Source: Bradyrhizobium sp.
GTDB lineage: Bacteria > Pseudomonadota > Alphaproteobacteria > Rhizobiales > Xanthobacteraceae
Assembly: GCF_036009065.1 (NCBI RefSeq)
Contig: NZ_DASYMN010000102.1
Location: forward strand, 3,202 to 67,201
Direction: 5' to 3'
Length of the DNA: 64,000 nt
The notes under the pieces were generated by a model. The model worked only from the letters and a program-made list of their open reading frames with translations. It had not been told where the DNA came from and did not search any database. The position numbers and the translations under genes are program-made. This document shows positions 39,149-44,882 of the stretch, in pieces; position 1 is the first letter of the stretch; each line of letters starts with the position of its first letter.

Positions 39149-39222
39149 TGGGGAATGGTGTAACGGTAGCACAACAGACTCTGACTCTGTTTGTCTAGGT
39201 TCGAATCCTAGTTCCCCAGCCA
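39149..39222 (+). tRNA. tRNA-Gln (anticodon CTG)
   Basis: TGGGGAA/TTCCCCA acceptor stem, ACAGA-CTCTGAC-TCTGT anticodon arm, GTTCGAATC T-loop, encoded CCA. Confidence 0.97.
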
Positions 39223-39258: not shown

Positions 39259-40689
39259 CTACGTGCGTGGAGAATCCGCCACGGCCACGACGATTCTTCG
39301 ATCCCAAAGCCACTGCAGCATGTTCCGGCCGAGATCGGGCGACATGCGGTCAGACCAGGCCTGCACGATGGAACCGGCGGTCTCGTCAGAGCGTATCTGC
39401 CGCAACAACGGGACCAGTTCGACTTCGCTCAGAAAGGCGACGGGACGATCCAGCGCCGCATGACAGAGCGCCGGCGTGGACGCGATCATGTCGCCCTGCA
39501 TGACCGGCATCGACTCGATCCGCGATAGCTTCGAAAGCTCGATCCTGCACGCCGGTTCTAGCCGTCTCGTTTCCAGCGGCGGCGGAGCGATATCGCGCAC
39601 GGCGGCAGCGGCGCGCTGCTGCCAGAACGGCCCCCCGGTTACGGCGGCGCGCTCCTGATAGAAGGCCGCCGCGCTGGCGGTGTGCTGTGAAACCTTTTCG
39701 GTTTGACGGTCCTTGTAGAATGTGATCGCGTCTGCCGCATGCGCCGGATGTTTTGCCAGCGTGTTGATGACCACGGCCGCCTGCAGTCCCGAGACCACGG
39801 CGCTTTGAATGCCCTGCGCAGACAACGGGTCAAGGGTCAGATTGGCGTCGCCGACCCGCACAAAATCCGGCCCGGCGGCGTGCTCGGCATGCCGGCTCGA
39901 TGCGTCGCACGCGGCGACCTCTCCCGCGATGCGGCCGGCCTCGTCCTCGCGAAACAATCTGAACCGGCGGAGGAGGTCGAAGTAAATGCCTTCGATGTTC
40001 GTCCGCGACCTGCCCGACAGGAGCTTCGGATCGATGAATACGGCGGCGACCGACTTGCCGCTGCCGAGCGGCGCGTACCAGAGCCACATATTGTCACCGG
40101 CCTCCACGCATCCCTCGACCTGCTTGCGGTCCGGCGCGTGCCAGTGCGCGAACAGGCTGAGCAATGGAGCGGAGCTTCGGATTCGCCGGCCGGGCAGCAA
40201 TGCCCGGCTTCCGGCGGCATCGACGAGGAACGTCGCCACGATCTCCTTTCGGCTTCCGTCATGCCGAACCGGGATTTGCCAGCCGCCGCCGTGCAGCCGC
40301 TGGGGGCTCATCGCATGCGCAGGCCGCAGCACCATGACGCCGCCGGCTTCGGCGTTGCGCAGCAGGATGTCATCGAACCGGCAGCGGTCCACATGGAAGC
40401 CGGGAAGCCCGGGCAACGACCGAACAGAAGGCCGCGCGTCCGCCCACCACACCACGATTCGTTCGGGACGCAGGAAGCCGGCACGCTCCAGGCGATCGCG
40501 GACCCCGATGACCTCAAGCAACGGCAGGATGCTGGACGGGAGTGATGCGCCGCTGCGCGCTTCAGGTACCGCATCGCGCTCAAGCAGACAGACCCGATAG
40601 CCGAACGAGGCGAGCCGGCAGGCGGCGGTTGAGCCGGCAGGGCCGCCGCCGATCACGCAAATGTCCGCCGTGATCCTTGCGATTTCCAT
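39259..40689 (-). CDS. FAD-dependent oxidoreductase, LodB/GoxB/QhpG-like, with C-terminal extra domain
   Basis: IGGGPAG, VDRCRFD, FLVDAAG, GDANLTLDPLSAQGI; in an operon with a LodA-like gene. Confidence 0.82.
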   Translation of the reverse strand: MEIARITADICVIGGGPAGSTAACRLASFGYRVCLLERDAVPEARSGASLPSSILPLLEVIGVRDRLERAGFLRPERIVVWWADARPSVRSLPGLPGFHVDRCRFDDILLRNAEAGGVMVLRPAHAMSPQRLHGGGWQIPVRHDGSRKEIVATFLVDAAGSRALLPGRRIRSSAPLLSLFAHWHAPDRKQVEGCVEAGDNMWLWYAPLGSGKSVAAVFIDPKLLSGRSRTNIEGIYFDLLRRFRLFREDEAGRIAGEVAACDASSRHAEHAAGPDFVRVGDANLTLDPLSAQGIQSAVVSGLQAAVVINTLAKHPAHAADAITFYKDRQTEKVSQHTASAAAFYQERAAVTGGPFWQQRAAAAVRDIAPPPLETRRLEPACRIELSKLSRIESMPVMQGDMIASTPALCHAALDRPVAFLSEVELVPLLRQIRSDETAGSIVQAWSDRMSPDLGRNMLQWLWDRRIVVAVADSPRT

Positions 40690-40696
40690 CTGGCAA

Positions 40697-42079
40697 TTAA
40701 GGGTGCGCCTGCGAATTCAGGACCTGGTGAAGCAGCGGAGGCTTCGCTTCCATCAGTCGCGCGTACACGCCGAGACAATAGTGCAGCCAGCCGCGAATGT
40801 AGTCGCAGGCGGGACGGCCACGATGAATGACCTCGTGATGGCAACCGCCACCGCACTGATGGCGCGCCCAACAGGTTCGGCAGGGCTCCTGCCTCTGCAC
40901 GTTCCGGTCCGATAGCCAGCGCTGCTGCTTTTCGCCGTCCACGCCATCGCTGACGTTGCCCATCGCGCCGAGATCGTCGTCGACGAAGCGATGACAGGCG
41001 AACAAGTCTCCCTTGGAGGAAACGCCGAGATAGCCCCCACCCGCGCCGCACGGATAGGCGTCGCGGTTTGGCTTGTGGATGCGGCGGAGCGTGTTGATGA
41101 TATTCAGGAATGGATAGATTTCGTTGTTCATCAGACGCTGCTCGAACGTCTCAGCGCATGCGATCATGCGCGCGAGCATGGCGTCGAACTCGCCCCTGCC
41201 CATCTGGTCGGAACCCGCCGGGGATTTCAGCACCGGCGAGAAGGACACGCCGTCGAAACCAAGGCGCGCGAGTTCGTCCAGCGTTTCCGGCAGGCCGAGG
41301 TTTCGCGGGGTGACGCTCACGCGCGCGATGACCTGCGAGCGGCGATGTGGGCGCAACAGCAGCAGTTTCGACCGTTCGATAATGCGGTCATAGCTGCCCC
41401 GGCCGGACTTGAACGGCCGCAGCGCATCATGGGCCGCGCCGACCCCATCGATGCTGACCGTCACGGTGAACCCGTGGCGGTCGAAGAACGCCGCATCGTC
41501 GGCCGTCAGCAGCGTCGCATTGGTGGTCAGCGCAAACGCGACGTTGATACCCAACGATGCCGCCCTGTCGGCGGCATAGCGCGTTGCTTCCTGCAAGACC
41601 GTCCGGTTGACCAACGGTTCACCGCCCAGATACGCAATCGTGATATTTTCGCCGGGCTCCGCGTCCGCCAGCAGCCGGTCGACGGACGCCTTCGCGACCT
41701 CAATCGGCATGCTGCTGTCGGCGCCGCCGAAATTGCCCTGCTGCGCGTAGCAATAGGTGCAGCCGAGATTGCACTTCTGCGCCACCGCGAGCGACAGCGC
41801 GCGGACCGGGACCGACACAGGCGCCTGCTCGGGAGCCCTCGTCTCGCCAAGTCCGGCGGCCGACATGATGAAGCCGACCCGCTCCGCGTCGCCATACTGC
41901 ATGGCTCGATCGAGCACTTCGGCCATCGCGTCATCGATCTCATGGATAAGTCCGTCGTCGATCGACAACAGCATGGTGCGCGCGTCCGCGCCGAACAGAT
42001 GTGCGTTCGGAACTCGGGGAGCGCTCGCGTAACGGGCGCGGCGGTCCGGTGCCGGCAAGTCAACGCCGATTGCTTCCAT
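40697..42079 (-). CDS. Radical SAM/SPASM domain protein (QhpD/thioether-maturase-like)
   Basis: CNLGCTYC, GGEPL, TTNATLL; SPASM CGAG..GDLFACHRF and CRTCWARHQCGGGC..C; N-terminal RRE-like region. Confidence 0.9.
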   Translation of the reverse strand: MEAIGVDLPAPDRRARYASAPRVPNAHLFGADARTMLLSIDDGLIHEIDDAMAEVLDRAMQYGDAERVGFIMSAAGLGETRAPEQAPVSVPVRALSLAVAQKCNLGCTYCYAQQGNFGGADSSMPIEVAKASVDRLLADAEPGENITIAYLGGEPLVNRTVLQEATRYAADRAASLGINVAFALTTNATLLTADDAAFFDRHGFTVTVSIDGVGAAHDALRPFKSGRGSYDRIIERSKLLLLRPHRRSQVIARVSVTPRNLGLPETLDELARLGFDGVSFSPVLKSPAGSDQMGRGEFDAMLARMIACAETFEQRLMNNEIYPFLNIINTLRRIHKPNRDAYPCGAGGGYLGVSSKGDLFACHRFVDDDLGAMGNVSDGVDGEKQQRWLSDRNVQRQEPCRTCWARHQCGGGCHHEVIHRGRPACDYIRGWLHYCLGVYARLMEAKPPLLHQVLNSQAHP

Positions 42080-42109
42080 TGCGACCCACCGTGGTTCGAG
42101 CGCGTTACC

Positions 42110-43321
42110 CTAGGCTATCAAGTCCTCGATGTCGTCGCCGGGCCCGCGTTCGGTTTCTACCTTCTTGCCAGACACCACCCGCATCACGCCGATCTTGTCC
42201 ACATGGCGGTCCATCCCATTCGGATCGAATTCCAGCGTTGGTCCATTGTCTGACGTGTCCGCATACTGTTTTCGGAAGAACTGGACCAACGTAGACGTCT
42301 CCTCATCAAGGTATGCCTCTTGCGGAAGGTGCTGCGCCCAGTAACCGACACATGCAGCGAAGTCGCCCTGCCACGGCGAGCACAGCCCGCTCGTCAGTTG
42401 CCCCGGCACCGCGCCGGGCCCGGTGTCGGTCAGTGACGCCTTGTATCGAACACGCGCTTCCCGGGGATCGACTTTCGGATCCTGGCTGCTCAGATAGAAG
42501 ACGCTCTTGATATCGATTACTTCCGTTCCCGGACCCGCGGAACCGAATGATGTCTCCATGCCCGGTTGAAATCTTCGCGTTGTCGATTCAAGCGCTCCCT
42601 CGTCCAAGGCTCTCGCGGCCTGGTTGTGAAGATTGCCGGGCGGGAGATTGTCGGGAATTTGAAGTCTTTCCTGGAAAAATTCGATCAGGCTTTCAGGTTC
42701 ATTCGTATCGGGTGAGAAGTCCTGCGGAGCAACCACGATGCAGGCTGGCAGCACGTCCGGCGTCTGGCCGCCGCCGGTCAGTTTCACGGTGACCGATCCA
42801 TCGCTGGCGTTGTCGGTAATTTCCTCGGAATACATACCGGGAATTTCCTGGCCCTTGGTCTTGCGCACCGCTCGCGCTATCGGCGGAATGAACAGGCCGT
42901 CCGAGGTGATCTGTCCCATAGCGACATCTTTTCCTTCATCGAATCCCGGCAGAGAGCCGACCAGCATTCCACCACTCGCGTCATCGGAGGAGGCCTGTGC
43001 CGAGATTACGAAGTCGGTGCTGCTTAAGGGGATGTCTTTCCGATTGGCGATCTTGCGATTGGCGACCCTCGCCGACCACACCGCCTGAATTTTCAGGGCG
43101 CCCATCAATTTCGGGGTGAGTTCGCCCAGCCCGGCGTGATTTTCCCCATAGGCGTAAATCCTGAACTGCACGGCTTGCCGCTTGATCAGACCATTGGATT
43201 TGTAGGTGCCCGGATCTTTGCCAAAAACGTAATGATCATCATTGCGCGACAGCCGTGCAATTCCGATTGCGGGATGAATCTTGAAGACGACAACATTGCT
43301 CAGGTCATACGGAAATGCCAT
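42110..43321 (-). CDS. LodA/GoxA-like CTQ-dependent oxidase, unusually short (403 aa)
   Basis: KIHPAIGIAR, IKRQAVQFRIY, W..RVANRK, D..SDGSV, PG.E, PGQLT..LCSPWQGDF..C...W; GAGGAG SD. Confidence 0.8.
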   Translation of the reverse strand: MAFPYDLSNVVVFKIHPAIGIARLSRNDDHYVFGKDPGTYKSNGLIKRQAVQFRIYAYGENHAGLGELTPKLMGALKIQAVWSARVANRKIANRKDIPLSSTDFVISAQASSDDASGGMLVGSLPGFDEGKDVAMGQITSDGLFIPPIARAVRKTKGQEIPGMYSEEITDNASDGSVTVKLTGGGQTPDVLPACIVVAPQDFSPDTNEPESLIEFFQERLQIPDNLPPGNLHNQAARALDEGALESTTRRFQPGMETSFGSAGPGTEVIDIKSVFYLSSQDPKVDPREARVRYKASLTDTGPGAVPGQLTSGLCSPWQGDFAACVGYWAQHLPQEAYLDEETSTLVQFFRKQYADTSDNGPTLEFDPNGMDRHVDKIGVMRVVSGKKVETERGPGDDIEDLIA

Positions 43322-43378
43322 GTTTGTTTTCTCCTCATCAGCTCTCGCGGCCGAAGCCGCAGGTACGCACCTTCTCCG

Positions 43379-44389
43379 CTATGGAACATACTCGAACGGT
43401 AACCCCAGCTGTTTTCCGGTGTGGGAGTCCGGCGTCGACACCACGCTCTCAGCGAGTTCTCGAAGGGACGACATGGCGCCGACCGCGCCGGTAATCCCTC
43501 CCGGCGAACCGTCGAAAACATTCTGCAACCCGCGAAGCATGTTCGAGTACGCTTTGTTGAATCCATCCACTTTCGTCCGTTCTGCCGAGCCCACCGGATA
43601 GTCTGCCGCCTTCGGGTTATCGGGAATGTCCCAGACGCCTGTCGGATCGAAAATCAGCGGATTGCCTGTATATGAGTACCCGTTTTGCGCGGCCGGATTT
43701 ACGACCAACTCCGCGCCACGATAAATCCCCTCGAACAGGTAAAAGTGAGCGAACTTGCCGTCCACATCGAGCGGAGTTAAAGTTGTTCCCTCTCCATCCT
43801 CGACGACGCGTTTGAGAGCCTTTACGGCCGTTGCTGCATCGGTGATTGCGTAAAGCTGATCCGAAGGAAACGAGTCTTCGTCGACGACCTGACGGCCCGG
43901 GTCTCCGGTGAAGATGGCGTCGCCGAGCTGGTCGATCTTCTCGATAATCGACCGGTAGAATTCTCCGATCGTCGCGAACGAGGCGCTAAAGGGAATAATC
44001 GTTTCGGGTGCTTCGATCTTCATGAAGACATCGTGAACGAGTTCCACGGAAAACTTCTTGAGACCGACCTGCAAGCTGCCTCCTATGTTCATCGGCAGCG
44101 GCCCCGGGTAGACAGGCGCGGCCTTCGGATCGGCAATGAGAGGGCGGCCATCAACCGCATTGAGAACGTTCGCAACGATCGTCATGTGCAGCATCTCTTC
44201 CTTGGCTACCTTAAAGATTGTTCTTTTGATTTCTTTATTGGTGCCCGGCATGATGCTGTACACAGCTGTCAAATAAGGCGGGATCGTTGACAGTTCGAGT
44301 TCAATGGCTTTTTGCAGCGGTTCATGCAGATCGGCGCCGCTCTTGGCGTTGCGCGCAGCTGCTACATAGACGGGATCGATGCGAAGCAT
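43379..44389 (-). CDS. Ferritin-like domain protein (VioB/RebD C-terminal-like)
   Basis: LQKAIELELSTIPPYL, EEMLHM..VANVLNA, TIGEFY, EDGEG, AHFYLF; start could be 44404 or 44425. Confidence 0.82.
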   Translation of the reverse strand: MLRIDPVYVAAARNAKSGADLHEPLQKAIELELSTIPPYLTAVYSIMPGTNKEIKRTIFKVAKEEMLHMTIVANVLNAVDGRPLIADPKAAPVYPGPLPMNIGGSLQVGLKKFSVELVHDVFMKIEAPETIIPFSASFATIGEFYRSIIEKIDQLGDAIFTGDPGRQVVDEDSFPSDQLYAITDAATAVKALKRVVEDGEGTTLTPLDVDGKFAHFYLFEGIYRGAELVVNPAAQNGYSYTGNPLIFDPTGVWDIPDNPKAADYPVGSAERTKVDGFNKAYSNMLRGLQNVFDGSPGGITGAVGAMSSLRELAESVVSTPDSHTGKQLGLPFEYVP

Positions 44390-44882
44390 GATTGCCGTGC
44401 CCATGGCTGGAGGACCGCTCGGCACATATCCACGAGCTATCGCTCGCGATAGGCGGCCCCTCGCGTTTCGGAACGTGGTCTGAGGTCTGCAACTATATTT
44501 TTATGGTGACGATTATAACTTGGCTGTAATTTCTTGCTTTTGAGAATTACCGGAAGGTTCACATAAATCTGCTTTCTCGTCAACCGCAACGCGAACAATA
44601 GCGTTAGCTCTCGTGGTCGAGTCCCGGCCTGAGCGCCCATCCGTCAGTTGTGAATGTATCTAAACTTTCTCAGCACTTTGTGCGCTTGGATCCGAGATCG
44701 ACCGCTTCGTATCTCACTCGCGTTCGCGGGTGCGTACAAATGCCACATCTGAGCACGGGTGCGGCTCGATGCCGACGTCAGCAGCAAACGGGTGGCCACG
44801 CGAAGCGATGCAGTAGCGACGAACCCGCCACCAAGATTGCCGGCCTCCACGTGCGGCGGGCTGTTCATCGCACCGCGCTGCC

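Follow-up and report, generated by a model that had tools for sequence, protein, structure and literature searches.

The 64,000-nucleotide stretch of Bradyrhizobium sp. DNA analysed here (assembly GCF_036009065.1, contig NZ_DASYMN010000102.1, positions 3,202 to 67,201 of the forward strand; hereafter the window) carries a four-gene operon that probably represents an uncharacterised class of cysteine tryptophylquinone (CTQ) quinoprotein, with a compact LodA/GoxA fold, a QhpC-type loop and QhpC-like maturation. CTQ is at present described as arising by two distinct routes in unrelated protein contexts: LodA and GoxA need a flavoprotein alone, and quinohemoprotein amine dehydrogenase (QHNDH) needs a flavoprotein together with a radical S-adenosylmethionine (SAM) enzyme, a protease and an exporter (2025 review, PMC11951088). 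The first-pass annotation of the window had proposed that the operon equips a LodA scaffold with a QHNDH-style maturation kit. This proposal is borne out by a GoxA/LodA fold, a QhpG-type flavoprotein, a radical SAM enzyme closest to QhpD and a gene order found in 20 of 20 loci. The operon comprises the following features.

43379-44389, minus strand: ferritin-like gene, 336 aa from the chosen ATG
42110-43321, minus strand: gene of a small LodA-like protein (mini-LodA), 403 aa, LodA/GoxA fold
42554..42565, minus strand: block P253-G254-x-E256 of mini-LodA, invariant in a 34-member alignment
42338..42382, minus strand: active-site/cross-link loop of mini-LodA, C314-S-P-W-Q-G-D320-F-A-A-C324-V-G-Y-W328
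40697-42079, minus strand: radical SAM/SPASM gene, QhpD-like, 460 aa
39259-40689, minus strand: QhpG-like flavin adenine dinucleotide (FAD) monooxygenase gene, 476 aa, with a catalytic and a C-terminal winged-helix domain (the latter ~39259-39600)

The gaps of 57, 30 and 7 bp between the four co-oriented genes, as first annotated, are exact in the open reading frame (ORF) listing, and all four lie on the minus strand. The ferritin-like ORF has a further start upstream (GTG at 44425), which is also open. Family searches with hidden Markov models (HMMs) agreed with the initial assignment of each product, returning PF12902, LodA_N/LodA_C, radical SAM/SPASM with QhpD as the best family, and QhpG.

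Fold and active-site loop of mini-LodA

Mini-LodA matches LodA_N (PF17990, 50.9 bits) and LodA_C (PF18417, 31.5 bits), both above the Pfam gathering scores, and fails the NCBIfam equivalogs for GoxA (27.6 bits, cut-off 750) and LodA (26.5 bits, cut-off 600). On these scores it is best placed in a distant LodA/GoxA subfamily, as an orthologue of neither LodA nor GoxA. An AlphaFold2 model built from the 34-sequence alignment reached a predicted local distance difference test score (pLDDT) of 90.5 and a predicted template modelling score (pTM) of 0.92. When this model was compared with the PDB by Foldseek, 37 significant matches were obtained, every one of them GoxA or LodA, with a probability of 1.00 and template modelling (TM) scores, normalised to the query, of up to 0.64. 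A search of 5.8 billion proteins yielded 315 homologs, nearly all of ~400 aa, from cyanobacteria, alpha- and gammaproteobacteria, Verrucomicrobiota and Acidobacteriota.

The loop consensus of the family is G-L-C314-S-x-W317-Q-x-D320-x3-C324-x3/4-W328, and C314, S315, W317, Q318, D320, C324 and W328 are invariant in the 34 diverse members, as is the C-terminal V-E-T-E-R…D-I tail. C314 and C324 are the only two conserved cysteines of the protein. By phmmer against the LodA structures 3WEU and 2YMW, residues 302-325 of mini-LodA aligned to LodA 494-517, so that D320 corresponds to the catalytic Asp512 and C324 to the CTQ residue Cys516 (roles of the LodA residues: PMC4417212). W328 is the sole invariant Trp after C324 and lines up with the Trp of the W-W-P-x-Q-R-P-D motif of classical LodA-like proteins. 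It is the candidate counterpart of LodA W581; the alignment of a classical LodA-like protein to the PDB LodA ended at the Cys. Mini-LodA is predicted to be the CTQ quinoprotein and the substrate of both maturases.

The two maturases

The best NCBIfam match of the radical SAM/SPASM enzyme is QhpD (TIGR03906, 308 bits, equivalog cut-off 453), followed by PapB at 262 bits. True QhpD proteins score 663-744 bits on the same model, and the cassette enzyme is ~30% identical to them from residue 25 on. Its closest PDB match is the thioether synthase CteB (5WGG, 173 bits). The CX3CX2C cysteines (C103/107/110) and seven SPASM cysteines (C344/362/400/403/409/413/425) are invariant in 15/15 cassette enzymes and also in 6/6 QhpD; C308 and C435 are conserved in the cassette enzymes and absent from QhpD. 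The maturase trees were small and had no proper outgroups; in them, the cassette radical SAM enzymes and QhpD are mutual nearest relatives. The cassette enzyme is best described as a sister family of QhpD and no orthologue of it. Because its closest families are QhpD, PapB and CteB and because mini-LodA has a C-x5-D motif, a bond from a Cys sulfur to an Asp/Glu carbon is the expected product, and the enzyme is predicted to be a Cys-to-Asp thioether synthase acting on mini-LodA.

The flavoprotein passes the QhpG equivalog (NF049967, 286.7 bits, cut-off 240) over model positions 1-423 of 423, and reaches 129 bits on the LodB and 105 bits on the GoxB model (both cut-offs 400). It was aligned to residues 8-429 of the QhpG structure 7CTQ, winged-helix domain included; halogenase structures match only to about residue 360. 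In QhpG the C-terminal winged-helix domain (residues 349-429) helps to form the substrate pocket (PMC7876137). The LodB-type proteins of this genome, used as controls, extend only to QhpG model position ~340 and fall below the QhpG cut-off. Moreover, a branch with 99% support in the Shimodaira-Hasegawa-like approximate likelihood ratio test (SH-aLRT) separates 15 cassette flavoproteins and two verified QhpG (465 and 445 bits) from 48 LodB-type proteins. The flavoprotein is therefore a predicted peptidyl-Trp dihydroxylase, with W328 as its putative target.

As a side observation, the NCBI QhpG equivalog model fires on cassette flavoproteins (286-314 bits) though no QHNDH is present. Since they lie over its cut-off, automated annotation will label them QhpG.

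Conservation of the gene order

Twenty radical-SAM-linked loci were collected (L001-L012, L091, L094-L096, L101, L102, L105 and L106). They include the duplicate pairs L001/L002, L004/L008 and L101/L102 and amount to ~18 non-redundant genomes or contigs. Genomes were scanned for loci with the alignment as query; the single mini-LodA sequence matched no genome. The loci span at least five phyla (Cyanobacteriota, Alpha-/Gammaproteobacteria, Verrucomicrobiota and Acidobacteriota among the hosts) and come from Acaryochloris marina, Leucothrix mucor, Opitutus, Thermoanaerobaculia, Aphanothece, Ca. Albibeggiatoa, Stappia, Verrucomicrobiales, Bradyrhizobium sp. NAS96.2 and several metagenome contigs. 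The first-pass annotation had made its proposal depend on conserved synteny with the radical SAM gene, and the order was kept in every one of them: a LodA-like gene, then the radical SAM gene, then a flavoprotein of 440-476 aa (20/20). Order and tight spacing persist down to 34% identity, with gaps of 9, 2 and -4 bp in L003. Such recurrence across all the related loci studied leaves little room for chance.

By comparison, an adjacent radical SAM gene was found in none of 76 classical LodA-like loci, a set dominated by Actinomycetota (72 identified in the genome scan, plus two each from this genome and from metagenomes). The flavoproteins of the classical loci end at ~360 aa. In one of these loci, L042, a weak radical SAM match of 58 bits lies ~1 kb beyond the flavoprotein gene.

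Some individual loci have a distinctive layout. At L101:507-9614 a classical LodA (875 aa) and LodB (362 aa) stand directly upstream of a cassette on the same strand (ferritin, LodA-like protein of 490 aa, radical SAM enzyme and 463-aa flavoprotein), so that both maturation types occur side by side. At L095:616-7534 mini-LodA is followed by a 693-aa LodA_N-like protein and by a separate 255-aa ORF with the CTQ motif (SLCSPWQNDYRECGCYYWAASRPD), after which one radical SAM gene and one QhpG-like gene occur; this may be either a true large/small subunit split or a frameshift. The cassettes with a larger LodA-like protein at L105:2716-12424 and L106:2660-12310 have a Lumazine_bd_2 protein upstream and, downstream, a ~1100-aa SAM-domain/guanylate-cyclase/AAA_16 (STAND-like) protein whose start overlaps the end of the flavoprotein gene. 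These flanks suggest a regulatory or signalling link.

A cysteine that accompanies the radical SAM gene

An HMM of the CTQ segment was used to find the motif in each locus, and the motif was found throughout. At the position six residues before the catalytic Asp (D-6), Cys was present in 16/16 radical-SAM-linked loci and in 0/73 classical loci with a detectable motif, which have Ala there, rarely Gly or Ser. In a library of 1.84 billion proteins, the 150 best representatives included 29 with the D-6 Cys and 99 without it. Two larger Cys-bearing proteins, P0271 and P0282, served as blind tests of this residue as a predictor of a radical SAM gene. P0271 passed: it is encoded in a full ferritin-LodA-rSAM-flavoprotein cassette, and its contig also carries a classical LodA+LodB pair next to the cassette.

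P0282 (GLCVPWQ) lacks an adjacent radical SAM gene, which rules out the idea that the D-6 Cys suffices to predict one. This protein, from a JGI contig, is a 596-aa LodA-like protein with GLCVPWQSDF; its context is cupin, LodA and a LodB-length flavoprotein, and it resembles the Ala-bearing relative P0294. Given that all radical-SAM-linked loci have the Cys and P0282 has it without a radical SAM gene, the residue is necessary and not strictly sufficient.

Two kinds of maturation in one genome

Four LodA-type systems, which fall into two maturation kinds, are encoded in the Bradyrhizobium assembly (5.68 Mb). Contig C351 (L091:2483-9501) carries a second cassette, made up of a PF12902 protein of ~540-640 aa, a 781-aa LodA-like protein, a radical SAM enzyme and a QhpG-like flavoprotein. 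Its radical SAM enzyme is 51% identical to that of the window, and its flavoprotein scores 314 bits on the QhpG model. The 781-aa protein has no Pfam match, yet it carries the motif LCSPWQNDFRECSCYYWASARPD (L-C-S-P-W-Q-N-D-F-R-E-C-S-C-Y-Y-W-A-S-A-R-P-D). It belongs to a large-type family with 690 homologs, nearly all annotated as hypothetical proteins, and the D-6 Cys is present in 120/120 members examined. Small size as the defining trait of the radical-SAM-linked group is ruled out by the 781-aa protein and these homologs.

The other two systems are classical pairs on contigs C250 (L092:2430-6961) and C414 (L093:2037-6727), with LodA-like proteins of 509 and 593 aa and a LodB-length flavoprotein. 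Each is preceded by a ~600-aa PF12902 protein and neither has a radical SAM gene. The presence of PF12902 proteins ahead of both classical pairs indicates that, in this organism, the ferritin-like protein accompanies LodA systems in general as an accessory.

Relationship of the loop to QhpC

In QhpC, the thioethers are C7-E16, C27-D33 and C41-D49, and CTQ arises from C37-W43 (PMC8172795, PMC7876137). QhpD cross-links Cys27 to Asp33; the Cys-Trp bond is not its work (PMC7876137). We extracted qhpC genes from QHNDH loci of related genomes and compared a profile of 123 QhpC sequences with LodA-type alignments by hhalign. After a 28-residue leader, QhpC reads …A-L-C27-Q-P-M-E-A-D33-L-Y-G-C37-A-D-P-C41-W42-W43-P-A-Q-V-A-D49….

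Against the C-terminal segment of mini-LodA the score was 30.7 (P 6e-5, probability 65%); 300 column shuffles gave a mean of 12.7 and a maximum of 21.1. Against the full-length mini-LodA alignment it rose to 45.5 over 58 columns (P 2e-6, probability 89%), a value reached by none of 400 controls (maximum 23.6 in 200 column shuffles and 29.9 in 200 within-block shuffles). The register pairs C27 with C314, D33 with D320, C37 with C324 and W43 with W328. In the full-length comparison a second collinear block aligns the QhpC leader helix and T-L-D-P-G-W-E16 with an N-Q-x-A-R helix and F-x-P-G-x-E256; the P253-G254-x-E256 block is thus collinear with D-P-G-W-E16 of QhpC, and likewise with P-G-I-E of LodA.

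The similarity extends to the classical family: 45 classical full-length LodA-like proteins gave a score of 44.1 (P 4e-6, probability 87%), aligning to QhpC in the same manner and reaching into its C-terminus. Moreover, an HMM built from LodA alone picked up QhpC ORFs among 4,502 ORFs with E values of 1e-5 to 3e-4. Together, these results indicate that QhpC and the entire LodA family have the CTQ core P-x-x-x-D-x3-C…W-W-P-x-Q-x-x-D in common. In addition, proteins of the radical-SAM-linked clade have the Cys that matches QhpC Cys27. In divergent clades (C-T-C…R-P-D) another Cys stands close to where QhpC has Cys41, which may permit a second thioether. The likeness was visible only to profile-profile and custom-HMM comparison; PF08992, the QhpC family, was not reached in an hmmscan of LodA segments. 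PF08992 had no match in the genome either, a weak negative since control genomes were equally silent.

Streptomyces-type classical loci (L013-L083, e.g. L013:6890-9013) have …C-x17-22-T-F-W-P-A-Q-V-P-N-H…, which is near C-W-W-P-A-Q-V-P-D-T of QhpC. This motif indicates that the LodA/QhpC likeness is not confined to the radical-SAM-linked clade.

An evolutionary link between the two known CTQ routes is probable on this sequence evidence. The stronger proposal, that QhpC arose by reduction from the C-terminal CTQ module of the LodA family (or gave rise to it) and that all CTQ enzymes had a single origin, is advanced tentatively, as we would give it slightly less than an even chance. If it were true, the radical-SAM-linked LodA-like proteins, including the separate small CTQ-segment ORFs, would be surviving intermediates, and QhpD/QhpG maturation would originally have served LodA-fold proteins.

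The ferritin-like partner

The 336-aa ferritin-like protein (PF12902, 217.6 bits) contains no Cys. Its AlphaFold2 model (pLDDT 88.3) is a four-helix bundle whose sole significant fold match is 3HL1, an uncharacterised Caulobacter protein; similarity to Dps and ferritin is weak. E32, E64/E65-x2-H68, E126, E200 and H215 are invariant and form a candidate di-metal site. The gene is present in 15/20 radical-SAM-linked loci, and an HMM screen detected it in 12/16 of these against 4/74 classical loci. An early tblastn hint that the partner is specific to the radical SAM variant was discarded, as both classical pairs of this genome carry long PF12902 proteins: the partner is enriched at radical-SAM-linked loci and not specific to them. 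PF12902 ferritin-like neighbours also occur beside fungal and some bacterial lodA-like genes (PMC4417212). The protein is an accessory common to many LodA-type systems and may supply or accept electrons, aid the final oxidation, or process the imine, aldehyde or H2O2 product.

At two Bradyrhizobium-type loci (L004:6875-7990 and L094:4902-5990) the ferritin-like gene is replaced by a gene for a 362-371-aa protein located 10 bp upstream of mini-LodA. The two replacement proteins are 72% identical to each other, have no Pfam match, and combine a signal-peptide-like N-terminus with two CxxCH heme-c motifs. This hints at a quinohemoprotein-like variant.

Genomic setting

The first-pass annotation had remarked that the operon has no heme subunit, peptidase or exporter gene, and indeed only the four genes are present. 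Neither a diheme alpha subunit, a beta subunit, a QhpE peptidase nor a QhpF exporter was found in the operon, and none is conserved in the related loci. By inspection, no signal peptide was recognisable in any cassette protein, and the LodA_N domain begins at residue 16 of mini-LodA; a cytoplasmic location of the cassette proteins is plausible.

Upstream of the operon is an intergenic region of ~490 bp, and directly downstream, 36 bp past the last stop codon, lies the following gene.

39149-39222, plus strand: tRNA-Gln gene

Genes for a VOC-family protein, an MFS transporter and an ABC substrate-binding protein are the other neighbours. Base composition shifts abruptly within the operon: the G+C content at third codon positions (GC3) is 0.66-0.67 in the ferritin-like and LodA-like genes (42110-44389), while the radical SAM and flavoprotein genes (39259-42079, 0.79) and the neighbouring genes (0.74-0.84) are in line with the genome.

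Proposed maturation and alternative explanations

Every chemical step given here is inferred from homology, and the substrate and the cellular location are likewise putative. First, the QhpD-like enzyme would link Sγ of Cys314 to Cβ of Asp320, in the manner of the Cys27-Asp33 bond that QhpD makes in QhpC, with the LodA-like protein itself, nascent or partly folded, as its substrate. The QhpG-like flavoprotein would next dihydroxylate Trp328, probably within a ternary complex that also contains the radical SAM enzyme and the substrate; such a complex was demonstrated for QhpCDG (PMC7876137). The Cys324-Trp328 bond would then form and be oxidised to CTQ. In the mature enzyme, Asp320 would be the active-site base, and the radical-SAM-linked LodA-like protein is presumed to oxidise a primary amine or an amino acid. 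The general mechanism is likely, and the specific C314-D320 bond somewhat less so.

Several points weigh against this scheme. The radical SAM enzyme would have to reach a loop inside a folded 400-aa protein. Its score of 308 bits is under the QhpD equivalog cut-off of 453, so its chemistry could differ. W328 is only 4 residues past C324; the spacing is 6 in QhpC and 65 in LodA. In GoxA, the CTQ Cys and Trp are 15 residues apart. The modelled pLDDT falls to ~71 across residues 321-330 of mini-LodA, and P0282 carries the D-6 Cys without a radical SAM gene.

The best-surviving alternative, which we consider unlikely, is that the radical SAM enzyme modifies the LodA-like protein otherwise than by a Cys314-Asp320 thioether and that the final cofactor is not canonical CTQ. 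Cys314 could be joined to another acceptor, the enzyme could help with the Cys324-Trp328 bond, or a different radical modification could be made. Such an outcome would fit an enzyme that is nearly as similar to the PapB, nif11-type and SCIFF maturases as to QhpD, whose cut-off it misses, and that has conserved cysteines (C308 and C435) lacking in QhpD; it would also fit the C324-W328 spacing, which is unlike that of all characterised CTQ sites. However, the C-x5-D-x3-C register is exactly that of QhpC, with both residues of the proposed bond invariant, and in QHNDH the Cys-Trp bond is not made by QhpD (PMC7876137).

It is far less likely that the radical SAM enzyme matures an unannotated small peptide nearby, either QhpC-like or a ribosomally synthesised and post-translationally modified peptide (RiPP), and that the LodA-like protein is a mere neighbour. 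Enzymes of the QhpD and PapB families do normally act on small leader-bearing peptides, the N-terminal domain is kept and alignable to that of QhpD from residue 25, and the CTQ motif of L095 is on a separate 255-aa ORF. Yet the gaps here and in L003 are very short, no conserved precursor ORF of 25-130 aa was found in 12 loci within ±1.5 kb (such small ORFs as are conserved prove to be shadow frames within the four genes), the genome has no PF08992 match, weak as this negative is, and the ferritin-like protein contains no Cys. This explanation would also fail to say why the radical SAM gene and the extra Cys of the LodA-like protein strictly go together. As no precursor gene was detected, the LodA-like protein itself is the likely substrate.

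That the cassette is a decayed remnant, or its co-localisation an accident of horizontal transfer without functional coupling, can hardly be credited: the GC3 of the ferritin-like and LodA-like genes (0.66-0.67 against 0.78-0.84 in the maturases and neighbours) and the tRNA-Gln gene downstream would agree with it, but all four ORFs are intact, the catalytic and cluster residues are all invariant, and order and tight spacing are conserved over at least five phyla, down to the 34% identity mentioned above.

Significance

The cassette combines both CTQ routes, and the sequence data point to a third, uncharacterised route to the cofactor. The first-pass annotation had stated that no characterised LodA system with a radical SAM partner was known to it; we likewise found none in the open-access full-text literature, nor any comparison of QhpC and LodA sequences there. 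Radical SAM goes unmentioned in a 2015 survey of 168 LodA-like genes (PMC4417212). Mini-LodA would be the first enzyme of the LodA fold to require maturation by a radical SAM enzyme, and one of few full-size enzymes whose active-site base is cross-linked by a SPASM enzyme. The alignments also provide sequence evidence for homology of the two CTQ sites. With four genes, no export and no heme, this compact system is an attractive model for cofactor biogenesis by thioether formation and subsequent hydroxylation. Some 1,000 proteins that are unannotated or listed as hypothetical (315 mini-type and 690 large-type) are opened to functional study, and annotation is sharpened where the NCBI QhpG model is called without a QHNDH.

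Comparison with known systems

Precedents for SPASM enzymes that act on large proteins are the anaerobic sulfatase maturase and the thioether cross-links of methanogen proteins (PMC13692751). These enzymes differ in that they carry out formylglycine chemistry or have other targets, with no link to a quinone cofactor in a LodA fold.

The PapB/CteB ranthipeptide maturases resemble the cassette radical SAM enzyme in their three-cluster SPASM architecture, PapB being its second-best family match (262 bits) and CteB its best solved relative, and in the predicted chemistry, from S to the C-beta of Asp. Their substrates are short leader-bearing RiPP precursors, whereas here the target would be the active-site loop of an enzyme, and there is no peptide gene.

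With LodA and GoxA (3WEU, 6BYW) mini-LodA has in common the fold, the Pfam domains, the aligned catalytic Asp and CTQ Cys, probably the invariant downstream Trp in a W-P-x-Q/R-x-P-D/N-like context, and the position of the oxidase gene ahead of the flavoprotein gene. In contrast to them, it is about half the size (403 vs 680-816 aa), has the extra invariant D-6 Cys, and is encoded with a radical SAM gene between the oxidase and flavoprotein genes; a LodB/GoxB-type flavoprotein as sole maturase is lacking. The cassette flavoprotein, being QhpG-type with a winged-helix domain, is predicted to add both oxygens to unmodified Trp, unlike a maturase working on self-made 7-hydroxy-Trp.

The closest likeness in maturation is to QHNDH: QhpD is the best match of the radical SAM enzyme, the flavoprotein passes the QhpG cut-off and has the winged-helix domain, and the loop is in the register of QhpC. 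As in QHNDH, the thioether would presumably be formed first and the Trp then dihydroxylated in a ternary complex. The systems differ in the substrate, which would be a 403-aa LodA-fold protein here and is a ~80-aa leader-bearing peptide in QHNDH, and in the number of thioethers, at most one being possible in the mini-LodA clade with its two conserved cysteines against three in QhpC. Finally, in place of a diheme alpha subunit, a beta-propeller subunit, QhpE and QhpF, the cassette has a ferritin-like partner.

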